Source of the DNA: a virus
Taxonomy: Duplodnaviria > Heunggongvirae > Uroviricota > Caudoviricetes
DNA length: 7,940 nt
Virus record (IMG/VR): IMGVR_UViG_2778261527_000012
Strand: one strand, 5' to 3'
The notes under the pieces were generated by a model, which saw nothing but the letters and a program-made list of their open reading frames with translations, had not been told where the DNA came from and did not search any database. Below are positions 547 to 7,940 of the stretch, piece by piece. The translations under genes and the position numbers were made by a program. Numbering within the stretch: position 1 is the first letter of the stretch; each line of letters starts with the position of its first letter.

Positions 547-1335
547 TCACGCATATTCCTCCTCCCCGCCATGCATGATCTCCACCATGCGCTGCGTCAT
601 TCGGACAAATCCATTTTCAATAGCCTGCTGATAATCAATGATCACCAGCGCCGACTCCTCGAAAAGGCACTGAATTTCAGCGGGGGCATGAGCGTAATAG
701 TCCGCAATTCTGCTGAAATTAAACACTGTGTGACGTTCTGCCGCACACAGGAGGAATTTCTCAATATCAGGATCAAGGGACGCCGAACGTATCCGGCTGA
801 TCAGCTCCTGAGTTTTCGTATCGTCGTACAGTTCACTGATATCCGGTTTACCGCCCGACGGCTCATAAACAGGCGTATCAATTTTCGTCGTATACGGCTC
901 CTCCTCATTTCCTGTACCGGGCAAAACATCCGTCAACAGTTCATCAATTTCTGTCGGGATGAAGCCTGTCAGGGAGACATCAAAATCAGCATTGATTAGG
1001 TCCGACAGCTCCATCCGCAACAGATCTTCATCCCAGCCAGCATTCATCGGCAGGCGATTATCTGCCAGGCGGTACGCCTTTTTCTGCTCATCCGTCAGGC
1101 CAGACAGAACAATGACCGGAACAGAATCCATTTTGAGCATTTCAGCCGCCATAACACGACCGTGACCCGCAATAATTTCGCCCTTTTCGTCAATCAGCAC
1201 CGGATTAGTCCAGCCGAATTGCTTAATACTTTCTACCAGTTGTGCCACCTGCTCAGTACTGTGCGTCCTGGCATTGTGCGCATACGGTGACAATTCTTGT
1301 AATGGGCGATAGACTATCTTTAATTTCTCGCTCAT
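547..1335 (-). CDS. ParB-like nuclease domain protein (ParB N-terminal / sulfiredoxin-fold), 262 aa
   Basis: Complete ORF with ATG start and a weak AAGG Shine-Dalgarno 5 nt upstream. The N-terminal ~95 aa follow the ParB N-terminal domain pattern (YRPLQELSPYAHNAR ... IIAGHGRVMAA ... LADNRL; GxGR-type motif), followed by an acidic C-terminal half. The gene ends in tandem stops TGA-TGA (549..544). Such genes usually sit just upstream of terminase genes in lambdoid phages. Confidence 0.85.
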   Translation of the reverse strand: MSEKLKIVYRPLQELSPYAHNARTHSTEQVAQLVESIKQFGWTNPVLIDEKGEIIAGHGRVMAAEMLKMDSVPVIVLSGLTDEQKKAYRLADNRLPMNAGWDEDLLRMELSDLINADFDVSLTGFIPTEIDELLTDVLPGTGNEEEPYTTKIDTPVYEPSGGKPDISELYDDTKTQELISRIRSASLDPDIEKFLLCAAERHTVFNFSRIADYYAHAPAEIQCLFEESALVIIDYQQAIENGFVRMTQRMVEIMHGGEEEYA

Positions 1336-2930: not shown

Positions 2931-3067
2931 ATCTAAATATTCTTTCAATTATAACCACCTTGCTGCAATATTATGATTATACTGTATAAAATTTAACTCC
3001 TCTTAGATCTTACTTCACTGTTCCTTATGAAACAATCATCAAAATGAATCATATTGTAGTTAAGATT

Positions 3068-3532
3068 TTACTTTAAACACTGCTCGGTTATGTATTGCTG
3101 AGCACCTTCAAGTTGGGCCTGCATCATTACCAGTCGTTCCCGGAGGGTGAAATAATCCCGTTCAGCGGTGTCTGCCAGTCGGGGGGAGGCTGCATTATCC
3201 ACGCCGGAGGCGGTGGTGGCTTCACGCACTGACTGACAGACTGCTTTGATGTGCAACCGACGACGACCAGCGGCAACATCATCACGCAGAGCATCATTTT
3301 CAGCTTTCGCATCAGCTAACTCCTTCGTGTATTTTGCATCGAGCGCAGCAACATCACGCTGACGCATCTGCATGTCAGTAATTGCCGCGTTCGCCAGCTT
3401 CAGTTCTCTGGCATTTTTGTCGCGCTGGGCTTTGTAGGTAATGGCGTTATCACGGTAATGATTAACAGCCCATGACAGGCAGACGATGATGCAGATAACC
3501 AGAGCGGAGATAATCGCGGTTACTCTGTTCAT
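3068..3532 (-). CDS. Rz: Rz i-spanin (inner-membrane spanin subunit), 154 aa
   Basis: [102 protein letters not shown]... is near-identical to lambda Rz as I recall it: N-terminal TM anchor followed by a coiled-coil periplasmic domain. The ATG at 3532..3530 overlaps the R stop in an ATGA arrangement. The track's GTG start at 3544 is an upstream extension. Confidence 0.92.
3127..3312 (-). CDS. Rz1: Rz1 o-spanin (outer-membrane lipoprotein spanin subunit), 61 aa, embedded in Rz in the +1 frame
   Basis: [57 protein letters not shown]... has a lipoprotein signal peptide with lipobox VVGC and a proline-rich mature part, near-identical to lambda Rz1. It lies entirely inside Rz in another frame, the classic embedded spanin arrangement. 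Confidence 0.9.
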
Positions 3533-4026
3533 TGCTGACCCCACAAACAGATTTCACGCTCAATCTCACGACGAGTCATGAGACCTTTCCATTGCTTACC
3601 GCCAGCATATGTCCAGCGACGTAGCTGATCACATGCGCCTTTGATATCGCCCTGGTTTATTTTGCGAAGAAGCGTCGATGTTCTGAAATTGCCAGCACCC
3701 ACGTTGTAAACGAATGAGTAAAGAGCGCCGCGCGTTGTTTCCGGTATATCGACTTTGATGTACGGGTTAATTTGTCTGGCGACAGTGGCAAGGTCTTTAT
3801 TCAAGAGTGTTTTGCATTCTGCTTTGGTATACGTTTTACCGAGCATGATGTCTTTTCCTGTATGCCCGTGACATACAGTCCATACACCAACAATATCTTT
3901 GTATGGTATGTAGCTGACACCTTCCAGACCATCGTTACCACTTGGGCCAGTGATTAACACTGATGCTATAGCAATTGCTCCGCCACCAATAGCAGCAGCA
4001 ACGGCTTTTCGTAATGATGGAGGCAT
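3529..4026 (-). CDS. R: SAR endolysin (phage-21 R-type lysozyme with N-terminal signal-arrest-release domain), 165 aa
   Basis: The N-terminus [27 protein letters not shown] is a Gly/Ala-rich weakly hydrophobic SAR segment, followed by a T4-lysozyme-like catalytic region ([24 protein letters not shown]; E-x8-D-x5-T pattern). The sequence matches my recollection of phage 21 R almost residue for residue. Its start overlaps the S stop (TAATG at 4028..4024). Confidence 0.93.
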
Positions 4027-4241
4027 TATTCACCTCTCGCAGCCTTGCGCTTATCTTCTTTAATCTTGAAATAAAGGTTTGTCAGGTACGTCAGCAGGCC
4101 AAATACCAGACTACCCAGCACACCGATTGCAGCCCACTGTGACGGAGTTACTCTATCGAGCAACTGTAAAAACCAGTAGCCAGCACTGCCTGCGGAGGTG
4201 CCGTAGGCAATGCCTGTTGAAATTTTGTCCATGGATTTCAT
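4026..4241 (-). CDS. S: Class II pinholin, phage-21 S-type, 71 aa, with dual-start motif (antiholin from M1, holin from M4)
   Basis: [71 protein letters not shown] has two TM segments and a charged C-terminus. The Met-Lys-Ser-Met dual start (ATG 4241 and ATG 4232) is as in S21. A GGAGGTGAGG Shine-Dalgarno lies 4-13 nt upstream of ATG 4241. The track's 90-aa version (start 4298) is a spurious upstream extension. Confidence 0.9.
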
Positions 4242-4340
4242 AGCCTCACCTCCGCACGGAACGGATGGCATAGTTATTATGTGTAGGCTTTCAGACACAT
4301 CAATCAGAGCCTTAATTGATATATATGCTGGAGACGATGC

Positions 4341-4367
4341 AATATAAAAAGCTCGCCGTAGCGAGCT
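4341..4367 (-). terminator. Rho-independent terminator downstream of the second TolA-like lipoprotein gene
   Basis: Minus-strand RNA: AGCUCGC-UACG-GCGAGCU (7-bp GC-rich stem, 4-nt loop) followed by UUUUUAUAUU. On the plus strand the hairpin is followed by TAATAAAAT, so it is effectively unidirectional for minus-strand transcripts. Confidence 0.6.
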
Positions 4368-4492: not shown

Positions 4493-4888
4493 CTAACCTC
4501 GCATGTCAAAGCCAGATTTCTGAAAATCTCTGTAGACTTCCGGATTGTTGAAGGCCGGAAATTTGGCTTTATGAGCTGCGGACTTTATCGCTTCGCAATA
4601 GGCTTTATCACCGTTACTGGTAGATATTTTTAACGCCGTGCCATCCTGAGAGAATTCCATATGCAACCTGCATTTTTTCCCTTTCCAGTTATGCGGCTCA
4701 TCAAGTTTGGCATTAATTGCAGCTCTGATTCCCCGCGCTTGCGCCCCCCATTCATCCTGATCATCCCAGCGTCCTGAACTGCAACTACCTGTAGCAGTAG
4801 TTTTGTGGCAATCTGAAGGGTGTAAAGGTGTGCATCCCGCAACAAAACCGACCCAAAAAGTCAACATAACGATTTTCTTTAATCCCAC
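4493..4888 (-). CDS. Lipoprotein with TolA C-terminal (domain III)-like domain, 131 aa (paralog 2, more divergent)
   Basis: GTG start preceded by a GAGGAG Shine-Dalgarno. Signal peptide MGLKKIVMLTFWVGFVAGC with lipobox VAG-C. The C-terminal ~80 aa (GIRAAINAKLDEPHNWKGKKCRLHMEFSQDGTALKISTSNGDKAYCEAIKSAAHKAKFPAFNNPEVYRDFQKSGFDM) align in pattern with the other paralog and with the C-terminus of TolA as I recall it, including the two conserved Cys. There is an extra Cys-rich linker (CTPLHPSDCHKTTATGSCSS). Confidence 0.7.
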   Translation of the reverse strand: MGLKKIVMLTFWVGFVAGCTPLHPSDCHKTTATGSCSSGRWDDQDEWGAQARGIRAAINAKLDEPHNWKGKKCRLHMEFSQDGTALKISTSNGDKAYCEAIKSAAHKAKFPAFNNPEVYRDFQKSGFDMRG

Positions 4889-5038: not shown

Positions 5039-5467
5039 TCAGGGTTTAAAATCCAGCACCCCATTTTGAAATACTTTATATACTTCCGGCGAAGGGGGGG
5101 CAGGTATATCAGCATTCTTTATCGCATTCATCGCTTCACGACATAAATCGAGGTCTCCACTTTCTCTTTTAACCTCCAGTAGAAGGCCATTCGGGGCCAT
5201 ATGCATTCTCAGTGTACACTCTTTTCCTGAATACTTACTCGCATCCCCGAACTGTTTTTCGATGGCGCTCTTGATTTGATGGGCATACAGACGGATATCC
5301 TCACTAACATCAGAAGTACGTTCAGATGAACTCACATACTGTGTCTCTATTGCTTTATCGGAGTAATATGATGTACGGTCATGATAATTTGTCGATACAG
5401 CATCAGTGCACCCGATAATAATCCCACTAATAATCAACGTAAGAATTGATGCGCTACGAAAACCCAT
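5039..5467 (-). CDS. Lipoprotein with TolA C-terminal (domain III)-like domain, 142 aa (paralog 1)
   Basis: ATG start with a GAGGAAAA Shine-Dalgarno 5 nt upstream. Signal peptide MGFRSASILTLIISGIIIGC with lipobox IIG-C. The C-terminal domain YAHQIKSAIEKQFGDASKYSGKECTLRMHMAPNGLLLEVKRESGDLDLCREAMNAIKNADIPAPPSPEVYKVFQNGVLDFKP closely parallels the E. coli TolA C-terminus as I recall it (...YAGQIKSAIESKFYDASSYAGKTCTLRIKLAPDGMLLDIKPEGGDPALCQAALAAAKLAKIPKPPSQAVYEVFKNAPLDFKP). The identity is from memory and not computed. Confidence 0.8.
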   Translation of the reverse strand: MGFRSASILTLIISGIIIGCTDAVSTNYHDRTSYYSDKAIETQYVSSSERTSDVSEDIRLYAHQIKSAIEKQFGDASKYSGKECTLRMHMAPNGLLLEVKRESGDLDLCREAMNAIKNADIPAPPSPEVYKVFQNGVLDFKP

Positions 5468-5496
5468 TTTTCCTCACATATGTCATATAGTAAAGG

Positions 5497-5526
5497 ATTA
5501 TATATACCGTTGTTTTGGACGCTCAA
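5497..5526 (-). promoter_or_regulatory. Candidate sigma70 promoter for the TolA-like lipoprotein cassette
   Basis: Minus strand: TTGAGC (plus 5526..5521), an 18-nt spacer, then TATAAT (plus 5502..5497) within a TATATATAAT run, about 30 nt upstream of the lipoprotein-1 ATG. The 18-nt spacing is slightly long; alternative registers give 16-17 nt. Confidence 0.45.
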
Positions 5527-6055
5527 ACAGCGAATCAGATCAAATAAAACGCACATTTGTTAACATTTACACAAAGTCTGCGTGGGATATTCTGAAAGAA
5601 TATCCATAATGTGGAGAGAATCTATTGAAGTGCATGGTGCCGGGTGCCTCCCGGTGAACAAAATGTTCGTGATACCTGTCGGCGACAGAAAAGGTTAATG
5701 GTATCACCCCACCGCACAGGGGGATTCACCATGCAGGAGTTTTCTTAGCAAACTCACTGCGCGCCCGGCAACTCCCAACCACATAAAATGCGGAGTTTGT
5801 GGTATTTATGCATATAACTCGCAGGAATTATCTTAAAAAACTGATGTCGATCCGGATTAAAAAGAAGCAGGTCATCATCAGATGACTGGAAAAAAGGAAA
5901 ACAAAAAATACTCATCATACAGTTTTGATTGCAGGGATGAGCCTGCTATGCACAATATGCAGAATATAAGCAAGATAAAAATATGCAGGCATATTATTTC
6001 GGATTTTGTTATTAACACAACCTTTTTAATAATCATTTGGCATACAATAAACCAG

Positions 6056-6084
6056 CCCAAAAAGAACCGCCTAAACAGGCGGTT
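6056..6084 (-). terminator. Rho-independent terminator (minus-strand transcripts)
   Basis: Minus-strand RNA: AACCGCC-UGUUUA-GGCGGUU (7-bp stem) followed by CUUUUUGGG. The plus-strand reading lacks a T-tract. Confidence 0.6.
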
Positions 6085-6404
6085 GGTCAATACAAAGGAT
6101 GCTTCGTCTTTATTATAGTAATCTGAGGCGTCGGGTGTCTTGTATCAGACAACATATTGTCCCGCTAAACAGCGAATTACAAACCACCCTGCAATGATCT
6201 CTCATCTCATTTTATATGAGTTGACGACATCAGGATAACGCATCATCAGCCCCTGCCAAGAAATATCAAAACTCCCGCCAGCAATGTGTTATCACAATAT
6301 TGTAAAAAAAACACAGCACCGAAACTATAACTGGTCTCTGTTATAATTTGGAGCAGAAAGACCAGTTGCCCAACTAGCAGCATTCTCCCCTGCTTTCCTG
6401 ACGT

Positions 6405-6431
6405 AAAAAAACCGCATTAAGCGGTTTTTTT
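6405..6431. terminator. Symmetric bidirectional intrinsic terminator about 80 nt downstream of the Q stop (candidate tR'-type terminator)
   Basis: AAAAAAACCGC-ATTAA-GCGGTTTTTTT: a CCGC/GCGG stem flanked by A7 and T7, so either strand gives a hairpin followed by a 7-U tract. Confidence 0.65.
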
Positions 6432-6511
6432 ACGATGTCCATGTCTGCAATCCGCCTCGCGATACAGCTTTGCGAAGCATAGCAAAATTGAAGCAGTTTA
6501 TACGTAAGAAA

Positions 6512-7054
6512 TCAAGCCATTTTCTCAGCAAATGATTCACGCATGGGAATATATAGGGCATACTCAGCAACAGCTAACCAATTAGCAATCCGTTTTTCGC
6601 ATGTGCTAAAACACCACTCTGGGTGTGCATCATTTAGCAATTCAGCCATTTTGCGCTTAGTCATCCCCCGCCCTTCATAGCGTTGCCGGAGAATGCAAAT
6701 CAATCCTGGATGCTCTGCCAGCACCTCACTTATGACTCGATCAATACATAACGCCTCTGCATCAGTACAATGCGCCAGCCAGCTCTTTTGCTTGCCGTTG
6801 ATCATCTCTCGCAAAAACGCTTCCAGCTCAGCTTTCTCTATTCCCGCTTTTTTCATTCTGCGCAGGGCTTCATTAATGGCTGTTTTCGTCAGTTTTTTGG
6901 ATGCCAACAACTGATTGAACATATTCCCTGACCTGCCACCGCCAATATACGACCAGCGCCCCCACATACGTAGTTTTCCCTGAATCCAGACACTTTCCAG
7001 CGTGGTGAGGCGAAGGTGTTCTCCGCTTTTTCCTGTATTCGTTGGGTAAATCAT
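6512..7054 (-). CDS. Late-gene antitermination protein Q-like, 180 aa
   Basis: It is the last gene of the nin-type operon and directly precedes the terminator and lysis region, which is the canonical Q position in lambdoid genomes. Size is right and it has a C-terminal Cys cluster (HCTDAEALC ... WCFSTCEKR) compatible with a Zn-binding element. Its start overlaps the upstream gene's stop (ATGA at 7054..7051). The call rests on position plus general resemblance, not a verified alignment; which Q family (21, 82 or lambda type) is undetermined. Confidence 0.65.
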   Translation of the reverse strand: MIYPTNTGKSGEHLRLTTLESVWIQGKLRMWGRWSYIGGGRSGNMFNQLLASKKLTKTAINEALRRMKKAGIEKAELEAFLREMINGKQKSWLAHCTDAEALCIDRVISEVLAEHPGLICILRQRYEGRGMTKRKMAELLNDAHPEWCFSTCEKRIANWLAVAEYALYIPMRESFAEKMA

Positions 7055-7341
7055 AAATGACCTTTCTTTCTCCAGATTTCTTGTGTGCGAAAAACCCCTT
7101 CAGCATGCATCAGGCGCAGTTCTTCTTTGGTGTAATCGCTGGTTTTTACCCGCCCGTCGATTAGATCGTGGCATGAGCTACAGGCTATCGCCGCCTGCAT
7201 ATCGTGTGGTTTTGTCGCTGTTCCGCACGTCCCCGCCAGCCTGTAATGCGCCAGCACAGAGGTTTCGGGATTGTGATTGCAGTAGCCAGGGATTCTGATC
7301 TGGCACATCTGGCCTTTAGCCGCTTTACGTAAATTCACCAT
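7051..7341 (-). CDS. DUF1364 family protein (YbcO-like, putative Zn-binding nuclease), 96 aa
   Basis: MVNLRKAAKGQMCQIRIPGYCNHNPETSVLAHYRLAGTCGTATKPHDMQAAIACSSCHDLIDGR... closely resembles E. coli DLP12 YbcO as I recall it (CQVRIPGVCNGNPETSVLAH ... IACSACHD), with conserved Cys/His positions. It is translationally coupled on both sides (TAATG with the upstream gene, ATGA with Q). Confidence 0.8.
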   Translation of the reverse strand: MVNLRKAAKGQMCQIRIPGYCNHNPETSVLAHYRLAGTCGTATKPHDMQAAIACSSCHDLIDGRVKTSDYTKEELRLMHAEGVFRTQEIWRKKGHL

Positions 7342-7940
7342 TACGCAAACTCCAGTAGTTGTGCGGCCACATTTTCAACTTCCTCCTGAGAGGAGAATTT
7401 ACGAAACAGAATCCAGTTCCACAGCACATTCAGTACAGATTTATAAACCTGCTGAAACTCGACTTCGTCCATATTCGCAAAAGCGATGGATTTTGCCCGA
7501 CGCCCACGGCTACCGTCCGGATAAATATGCTCGGTGTAAAATCCGGCCTGAATGGTTACCCACTCGCGGAAAGCCTCAAACGACTTTAGCAACGCCGTAT
7601 CCCGGGTTCTACGAGTCGCAACGGTGTTAAGGTATTGCTCTGCGGCATCACTCAGGGCTGGCGTGTGTTCCCGACCAACTGATTCGCACAGGTAATCAAC
7701 GAAACCAGACAGCAGTTCTCGTTCGCGAGGCGTGATCGCCCCACCGACCGGAGTCCAGTAATCGAATCCCAGTTGCAGGAGTTTGAAAAAACGCTTGTGG
7801 AATGCGTAGTTACGCACACGCTTAAAGTCTGCGTGTATCCACTCACCTATTTTGATTTGATGCAGAAAATCGCAACTCTCCGGCGTCGCCGGGAGAAGTA
7901 AACCAGAAGAAGTTTGTTTGACCAGTTGTATATGCGCCAT
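7341..7940 (-). CDS. Lambdoid nin-region protein, probably DUF1367 family (YdfU-like), at least 199 aa
   Basis: Long ORF with typical E. coli codon usage whose stop overlaps the start of the DUF1364 gene. The ATG is formed by the last three bases of the window, so the true start may lie beyond the window. Family assignment is from recollection of gene order in Qin/Rac-type prophages, not from a verified alignment. Confidence 0.55.
   Translation of the reverse strand: MAHIQLVKQTSSGLLLPATPESCDFLHQIKIGEWIHADFKRVRNYAFHKRFFKLLQLGFDYWTPVGGAITPRERELLSGFVDYLCESVGREHTPALSDAAEQYLNTVATRRTRDTALLKSFEAFREWVTIQAGFYTEHIYPDGSRGRRAKSIAFANMDEVEFQQVYKSVLNVLWNWILFRKFSSQEEVENVAAQLLEFA

Follow-up and report, generated by a model that had tools for sequence, protein, structure and literature searches.

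What occupies the interval between a gene for a Q-like antiterminator and the first of two lipoprotein genes in the viral record IMGVR_UViG_2778261527_000012, a stretch of 7,940 nucleotides (nt) that we call, at its full length, the window? The window DNA is 100% identical to many Escherichia coli chromosomes and, read on the minus strand, represents the late region of an E. coli prophage remnant that is lambdoid and Rac-like. The gap under study (5468..6511, minus strand) holds no supported gene and is a composite of three parts, i.e., a late promoter-terminator unit directly after the Q-like gene, a mosaic spacer and a copy of the STnc100 RNA family. We consider it likely that these three stand for a Q-controlled late unit, recombined spacer DNA and an STnc100-family gene, and the gap appears to be largely explained by known kinds of element, with no new class of element among them. 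The main features are as follows:

7054..6512, minus strand: gene for the Q-like antiterminator, 180 aa, DUF1133 (Pfam, PHROGs, fold search)
6515..6402, minus strand: late promoter-terminator unit, with promoter pR', pause/Q-loading region and terminator tR' (comparison of Q relatives in six lineages)
about 6400..5765, minus strand: mosaic, AT-rich spacer of about 640 nt
5764..5578, minus strand only: STnc100-family RNA (RF02076), 86.6 bits, E 4.6e-18

The first-pass annotation of this DNA had claimed that no convincing protein gene lies between the Q stop and the lipoprotein promoter, and annotation, frame searches and insertions or deletions (indels) agree with it: no coding sequence is annotated in the identical stretch of NZ_CP075062, not one of the stop-to-stop frames of at least 35 aa in the gap has a significant match in Pfam or PHROGs (best E 0.02), and homologous copies of the gap differ by frame-breaking indels of 1-2 nt. 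A hidden or decayed coding sequence was therefore rejected. The same annotation had named decayed coding sequence or insertion debris, devoid of conserved blocks, as the outcome that would overturn it; what we find is a conserved Q-adjacent block and no coding signal. A search for transfer RNA (tRNA) genes found none, and a sigma-70 consensus scan of the region listed 11 promoter-like matches against 7.2 +/- 2.8 expected, i.e., no enrichment.

A probable late promoter-terminator unit

The protein encoded upstream of the gap matches PF06576 (DUF1133) at 356 bits and only marginally passes PF06530, the Q21 family (26.1 bits, cut-off 26), while PHROGs places it in phrog_753 ('anti-termination protein Q-like'). 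Both domains occur in most of 120 listed homologues, some of them named antiterminator or late gene regulator. An AlphaFold (AF2) model was of modest quality (predicted local distance difference test, pLDDT, 61); used in a Foldseek search of the PDB, it found Q21 in all of its best four matches (probability 1.0, template modelling (TM) score 0.51-0.63; next 0.13). Since Pfam, PHROGs and fold search agree, we accept the product of 6512..7054 as a predicted, distant Q21-type antiterminator. Its likeness to phage 21 Q (PDB 6P18-6P1C; PF06530) lies in the marginal Pfam match, the best fold matches and an N-terminal W..G.L..WG.W motif common to both proteins, whereas the two share only 15-18% identity and the structure model is of low confidence. 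We found no experimental study of a DUF1133-type Q, though the literature was not searched for this Q type specifically, and a literature search on the LT-II/Rac prophage late promoter returned nothing useful.

Directly after this gene, the unit is made up of the following elements:

6515..6510, minus strand: candidate -35 of pR', TTGATT, overlapping the Q stop TGA (position kept across lineages)
6492..6487, minus strand: candidate -10 of pR', TTCAAT, 17 nt after the -35 (slot kept across lineages)
6481..6476, minus strand: second -10-like hexamer, TATGCT, at about -1..+5, a putative sigma-dependent pause element
6478..6454, minus strand: 5'-terminal 7-bp hairpin GCUUCGC...GCGAGGC of the putative short late RNA (minimum-energy fold)
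6434..6402, minus strand: tR', an intrinsic terminator, bidirectional in form (inverted repeat and fold)

That the interval contains pR', a region for the Q element and tR' had been claimed from position, and comparison of Q relatives from six lineages (E. coli, Rac-SA53, Salmonella, Klebsiella, Providencia and Edwardsiella) places all three at 6515..6402. A comparison of Q-to-S intervals had been among the checks proposed with that claim; in the relatives compared here the promoter block is conserved. Among 89 loci compared, most of them fetched through this Q, the promoter-block motif is present in 76, and the 185 nt around it fall into 24 distinct variants of full length. Close relatives of this Q show hardly any change in the block between the Q stop and about 6453, and the 59 nt after the Q stop recur alone in phages with unrelated downstream DNA. 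An intrinsic terminator follows 20-25 variable nt past the block, with at least four unrelated terminator sequences at that position, and because the terminator sequence is swapped while its position is kept, we regard the evidence for a promoter-terminator unit as strong. The two intrinsic terminators reported earlier for the interval are both present, the first being a perfect 14-nt inverted repeat at 6402-6415/6421-6434 rather than at 6405..6431. Beyond it, in Salmonella (loci L356 and L358, 3392-3542) and in phage 683R6 (locus L007, 2854-3004), the Q/promoter block is followed by two tRNA genes; since these replace the spacer of the window, the slot after tR' is evidently exchanged with ease.

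The order of elements is kept over a wide range of Q relatives, from Rac-SA53 (76% identity) through Klebsiella (61%) and Providencia (43%) to Edwardsiella (31%), and in Salmonella as well: a -35, N16-17, a -10, N5-7, a TAnnnT hexamer, a leader and a terminator. The -35 slot holds TTGAyw or TTGCAA in all six lineages wherever the stop codon falls, and in a Salmonella variant with an earlier Q stop TTGCAA still lies 17 nt from TTCAAT. The -10 slot reads TATAGT or TATATT in Providencia, TAGTAT in Edwardsiella, TATCTT in Rac-SA53 and TTGAAT in Klebsiella, so that near-consensus promoters are seen in Providencia (TTGACT-N16-TATAGT) and Edwardsiella (TTGACA-N16-TAGTAT). Past this first -10, at 5-7 nt, T-A-N-N-N-T is invariant in all six lineages (TATGCT, TACGCT, TAGGCT, TACACT, TAAGAT).

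In lambda pR', the sigma-dependent pause element is likewise a -10-like hexamer placed at about +1..+6. The first-pass annotation had proposed TGCTATGCT, the site of TATGCT, as an extended -10 of pR'; given the -35/-10 pair of fixed geometry upstream, it is better read as a pause element, and the sequence comparison makes a promoter-proximal pause element more likely here than a -10. Pause elements of this -10-like kind have a role in Q loading (10.1101/651190). The Q21 binding element lies within -40..-1 of its promoter (10.1101/651190), a position that, by analogy, is compatible with the unusually conserved promoter spacer of the window unit, TTTAC(G/C)..A(A/T)AAA, our sole lead to a Q-binding element; no 8-bp direct repeat like that of Q21 was identified. 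We postulate that the sigma-70 promoter TTGATT/TTCAAT starts late transcription and that sigma, at TATGCT, would hold RNA polymerase in a promoter-proximal pause in which Q could load. Without Q, transcription would terminate at 6434..6402, leaving an RNA of about 75 nt that starts at about 6480 and is predicted to consist of the 7-bp 5' hairpin and the terminator; with Q, the polymerase would read through tR', and a second terminator in the spacer would also be ignored by the Q-modified enzyme. The 82-nt unit folds at -30.4 kcal/mol (z -4.6), the 5' hairpin lies in the block that close relatives share without change, and hairpins with compensatory changes, read by eye, stand at the equivalent place in Providencia and Edwardsiella.

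The lambda pR'-qut-6S RNA-tR' unit is similar in that it, too, lies directly after Q and has a promoter, a -10-like element, a short leader and a terminator before the late genes, whereas the window Q belongs to the DUF1133/Q21 superfamily and not to lambda Q, the window promoter hexamers are weak, and the window leader is about 75 nt against 194 nt in lambda. Another relative in layout is IsrK (RF01394) of Salmonella Gifsy-1, likewise a short RNA just after a Q-like gene, with a 5' hairpin and a terminator; it is encoded just downstream of the Q-like gene and some of its transcripts read through into downstream genes (PMC4825925). This likeness is an analogy of architecture only. Membership of the late RNA in IsrK was rejected (sub-threshold matches of 21.6 and 20.1 bits; gathering score 50), and no isrK was found next to the Salmonella homologues of this Q type.

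An STnc100-family element before the lipoprotein genes

The first-pass annotation had suggested that the excess length of the gap holds a functional RNA, and the RNA-family covariance-model search it recommended gave a match to STnc100, above the cut-off and on the minus strand, exactly at the GC-rich segment that had drawn its attention. The match covers model positions 1-206, i.e., the full length (gathering score 47), and the fold of the element is unusually stable (z -4.1). The element is not new, as it belongs to a curated family. The nested repeats described at 5636..5705 are real and form part of a larger domain, which a 9-bp helix (5631-5639/5727-5735) closes. In and around the copy we recognize:

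5771..5742, minus strand: candidate own promoter of STnc100, TTGCCG-N18-TAAGAA (7/12), with TG at 5750-5749
5735..5631, minus strand: structured core closed by P1 (repeats, fold, family covariation)
5735-5727/5639-5631, minus strand: core helix P1
5723-5720/5710-5707, minus strand: core helix P2
5706-5700/5676-5670, minus strand: core helix a:a', enclosing a hairpin at 5688-5677
5668-5656, minus strand: core hairpin
5654-5650/5644-5640, minus strand: core helix P6
5605..5585, minus strand: AU-rich 9-bp hairpin in place of the family terminator, then CACGCAG, without a U tract
5526..5497, minus strand: promoter-like TTGAGC-N18-TATAAT before the lipoprotein gene (10/12)

The invariant hairpins CCCC..GGGG and CCGGG-AGGCA-CCCGG are present in the window core and identical in 66 distinct family cores, which were gathered by means of a search pattern in which part of these blocks is fixed. 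Family members are known from several settings. One STnc100 copy, situated 75 nt downstream of stx2B, has been found in outer membrane vesicles (PMC12370729), there is overlap between STnc100 and the Hfq-bound EcOnc27/sRNA103 (PMC12711010), and STnc100 is considered a relative of PasD1 and PasD2 of enteropathogenic E. coli (EPEC), which are Hfq-dependent and have many partners in RIL-seq, a method that ligates and sequences interacting RNAs (PMC8550237; 10.64898/2026.05.13.724894). A blastn search with the 201-nt window element retrieved 363 phage records, mostly of Shiga toxin (Stx) phages, and at five annotated phage loci (Min27, AU6Stx1, PhiR12_4, mEp460, Kp4875-4) the element, in the sense direction, comes after Q or stx and before the next late gene. 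We collected 109 distinct copies with their flanks: 85 of them score at least 8/12 for a promoter-like pair with N18 and a -10 ending 8-11 nt before P1 (e.g., TTGACA-N18-TAAATT, TTGTCT-N18-TAAAAG), and 70 have an intrinsic terminator starting 20-70 nt past the core. This layout fits a self-contained small RNA (sRNA) gene with a variable single-stranded stretch before its terminator.

The ends of the family core are invariant and the middle is variable. Most copies have a pseudoknot, made by pairing between the P5 hairpin loop and the stretch that follows P2; there are at least 12 compensatory versions of it, including strand-swapped ones (CCAGU/ACUGG vs ACUGG/CCAGU). In 32 sequences, chosen by a pattern in which parts of P1, P2 and P6 are fixed and set in a single alignment register that some subfamilies do not fit, 81.7% of cells are paired; with partners slid by 1-3 columns the figure is 37-47%. 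The covariation score of 0.249 compares with 0.124 in shuffles, of which 0/500 reached it. All six pseudoknot pairs (alignment columns 36-41 with 60-65; about 4045-4110 in Min27, locus L003) and all six P5 pairs change on both sides in this set. Because many copies have the same CCAG/CUGG core, an initial chimera control of the pseudoknot discriminated poorly (7.0 vs 6.4); a stricter control gave 6.66 vs 4.74. The printed Rfam consensus of STnc100 has nested pairs only, without the pseudoknot. The element also multiplies: strain 317 (locus L335, 2810-3925) carries four tandem copies between tRNA genes and an esterase gene, each matching the full-length model, and SK6988 (L334) has five matches across its locus, three in 2936-4293 and a further region at 817-1030. 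Chimeric copies (mEp460, L002 3992-4292; L227 3624-3850) combine an Stx-type pseudoknotted core with a window-type 3' flank and a TolA-like gene, and as the chimera junction falls at the conserved end block, the sequences suggest that invariant blocks act as recombination joints between phage modules. In the Stx2 phage Min27 (L003 4196-4248, minus strand), the anti-sRNA AsxR (RF02703) lies antisense directly after the STnc100 terminator, the two genes standing tail to tail.

With its relatives, i.e., STnc100, PasD1/PasD2 (EPEC) and EcOnc27/sRNA103 (enterohaemorrhagic E. coli, EHEC), the window copy shares the full-length model match, the invariant P1, P2 and P6, and a place in the Q-to-lysis slot of a lambdoid late region in sense orientation; it stands between the Q-like gene and the holin gene, sense to the late genes. 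It differs from them in three respects. Most relatives are pseudoknotted, whereas in the window UGAUACC/GGUAUCA form a nested helix (a:a') around a small hairpin; the relatives keep company with nanS-p esterase or stx genes, whereas the window copy directly precedes TolA-like lipoprotein genes; and it lacks the U-tract terminator that is the Hfq-binding module of Pas/STnc100 sRNAs. Of seven distinct window-type copies, not one is followed by a terminator in the next 140 nt, compared with 70/109 of all elements, and the next terminator found by scan on the minus strand is at 4367..4350, after the second lipoprotein gene. Therefore, the window RNA is probably the leader of a two-gene lipoprotein moron or part of a Q-driven late transcript, as far as its sequence allows us to judge. 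We picture the gene as having its own candidate promoter and as encoding a scaffold of several hairpins closed by P1; its RNA would be made as the 5' part of a lipoprotein or late transcript and most likely not as a discrete terminated sRNA. The window subtype is near-identical in 445 E. coli genomes.

The mosaic spacer and the neighbouring genes

Between the two conserved parts, the middle 640 nt gave no DNA-level match in phage records, and pieces of the spacer are found at 66-85% identity in other E. coli Q-to-lysis intervals, beside tRNA, esterase or tolA-like genes. Its features are:

6329-6337/6359-6367, minus strand: inverted repeat AACTGGTCT/AGACCAGTT, for which no function is supported
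6141..6112, minus strand: promoter-like AAGACA-N18-TATAAT (10/12), the best sigma-70 consensus match in the region
6084..6056, minus strand: second intrinsic terminator, stem 6065-6084 and T run (scan and repeat search)
6055..5765, minus strand: AT-rich non-coding spacer upstream of STnc100, 27-43% GC (composition)

The long inverted repeat described in the first-pass annotation exists, with its coordinates about 6 nt off, and the T8 run said to follow it (6305-6312) sits 17 nt away, so that AACTGGTCT/AGACCAGTT is not a canonical terminator. It was rejected as a terminator or RNA element, being outside the minimum-energy fold (z -1.1) and not conserved; its 5' arm is absent from the homologous AST240 segment. 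A direct repeat, GTAAAAAAAACACA / GTAAAAAAACCGCA (6302-6315, 6403-6416), makes the T8/A8 run resemble one half of tR', and this stretch is possibly a decayed second terminator. Just after tR', a hydrophobic open reading frame of 45 aa (MLLVGQLVFLLQ..., 6246-6383, minus strand) is probably not a gene, having poor ribosome-site spacing, no family match and frame-breaking indels in the homologous AST240 segment. The pair of AAGACA-N18-TATAAT and the terminator at 6056..6084, offered earlier as a candidate for pR', proved not to be linked to Q. About 290 nt before STnc100 are 66-85% identical upstream of STnc100 copies in other prophages, again with frame-breaking indels, and the window has a deletion of about 70 nt in 5765..6055 relative to these homologues.

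On either side of the gap lie:

7940..7341, minus strand: DUF1367 gene
7341..7051, minus strand: YbcO gene
5467..5039, minus strand: gene for a TolA C-terminal-domain lipoprotein, the first downstream of the gap (PF06519, E 2.4e-23; phrog_5772)
4888..4493, minus strand: gene for a second TolA-C-terminal-domain lipoprotein

In NZ_CP075062 host genes stand directly past the DUF1367 gene, and hence the early region is lost. The two lipoproteins (5039-5467, 4493-4888) are paralogous (both PF06519, phrog_5772) and form a moron-like unit that ends at a strong terminator (4350-4367) just before the holin gene; a decoy role of such TolA-like lipoproteins against Tol-dependent phages or colicins is conceivable. 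The minus strand continues with a phage-21-type holin, lysozyme and Rz/Rz1, followed by the potassium transporter gene trkG and a ParB-like gene (1473-2948, 547-1335, minus strand), as in K-12 Rac. The Q-to-lysis region, which we take to be missing from the K-12 Rac prophage, is intact in the window.

Alternative readings and their meaning for the family

Several observations speak against the Q-controlled composite that we favour. The window hexamers of pR' are weak (8/12), TTCAAT has T for A at -11, and the consensus promoter scan did not list the TTGATT/TTCAAT pair; no Q-binding element can be named in the unit; the prophage is a remnant in which the early operon of the Q gene is gone; and in the STnc100 part, the copy's own candidate promoter matches at only 7/12 and the Rfam model begins about 30 nt upstream of the predicted RNA start. 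The weakness of pR' bears on a different placing of the promoter, in which TGcTATGCT (6484..6476) would be an extended -10, transcription would start near 6470 to give an RNA of about 65 nt, and TTGATT-N17-TTCAAT would be no promoter at all. A TG stands one base before T-A-N-N-N-T in the window and in Klebsiella (TGaTAGGCT), so that either could be an extended -10 promoter; TATGCT is moreover the best -10-like sequence beside Q in the E. coli lineage, and TTCAAT lacks the key A at -11. However, many close relatives in which all else is kept have other bases in place of the TG (CCGGTATGCT, CCGGTACGCT, CCAGTACGCT), no -35 was found 17 nt upstream of TATGCT, and the near-consensus pairs upstream in Providencia and Edwardsiella would put the TAnnnT hexamer at about +1..+7; we hold this placing to be possible but clearly less likely than ours. 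Downstream, AAGACA-N18-TATAAT (6141..6112) and the second terminator (6084..6056) might form a gene in its own right, giving a tiny RNA of about 45 nt. Besides being the best consensus match of the region, this promoter-like pair keeps TATAAT or TAAAAT at its -10 column in two diverged homologues, about 40 nt before the terminator, and a terminator is found at the equivalent position in SK6988 and strain 317. Yet the -35 is not kept, only three lineages are involved, there is no Rfam match, the stretch is not unusual on its own (fold z only -1.8), and the terminator of strain 317 follows tRNA genes and may simply end their transcripts, which makes such a gene unlikely.

As regards the STnc100 copy, one may ask whether it is still active. 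It could be an inactive relic, unable to yield a stable Hfq-bound sRNA for want of a terminator and persisting only as a recombination joint: the window-type copies are without terminators, the chimeras join the Stx-type core to the window-type 3' flank exactly at conserved blocks, a terminator-less PasA variant has been proposed as a pseudogene (10.64898/2026.05.13.724894), and the Rfam score of 86.6 is among the lowest compared (up to 207.7, with three copies lower). Against this, the window subtype keeps all its helices, with one A-U pair turned to G-U in a diverged copy, is near-identical throughout those 445 genomes, and has its core intact in the mEp460 neighbourhood, SK6988 and strain 317, where the flanks are at 66-85% identity; we give the relic some weight, as a possibility short of an even chance by a good way. 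A cis-acting sensor, i.e., a riboswitch-like attenuator of readthrough into the downstream genes, would be in line with the succession of promoter, P1-closed pseudoknotted domain, linker of about 30 nt, terminator and genes, and in the E. coli Stx type pairing is possible between the terminator's 5' arm and the 3' arm of P2. But no conserved alternative pairing exists across 31 terminator types, disrupting the terminator costs 6-19 kcal/mol, four-copy tandem arrays fit trans-acting genes better, copies with a promoter and terminator of their own occur across the family, and relatives are reported to bind Hfq and to have many trans targets (PMC8550237), so that a sensor seems very improbable. 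The narrower idea of a transcription-terminating riboswitch was rejected for lack of a conserved, mutually exclusive antiterminator/terminator pairing. Quite unlikely, in our view, is that the invariant, pseudoknotted scaffold is more than the 5' end of an Hfq-dependent base-pairing sRNA and, within the late or moron transcript, is dedicated to binding a protein or ligand; if it is, processing, stability or protection from Rho would be possible roles, and the terminator-less subtype fused to lipoprotein genes would be its cis-acting form.

The composite of Q-controlled late unit, mosaic spacer and STnc100-family gene provides, for a DUF1133-type Q, a predicted map of where late promoter, pause site and terminator lie; this Q type is widespread in prophages of Escherichia, Salmonella, Citrobacter, Klebsiella, Providencia and Edwardsiella. 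The pseudoknot and the tandem arrays of STnc100 bear on the folding and diversification of the virulence-linked sRNAs of Stx phages, and the terminator-less subtype present in the window may act as an mRNA leader.

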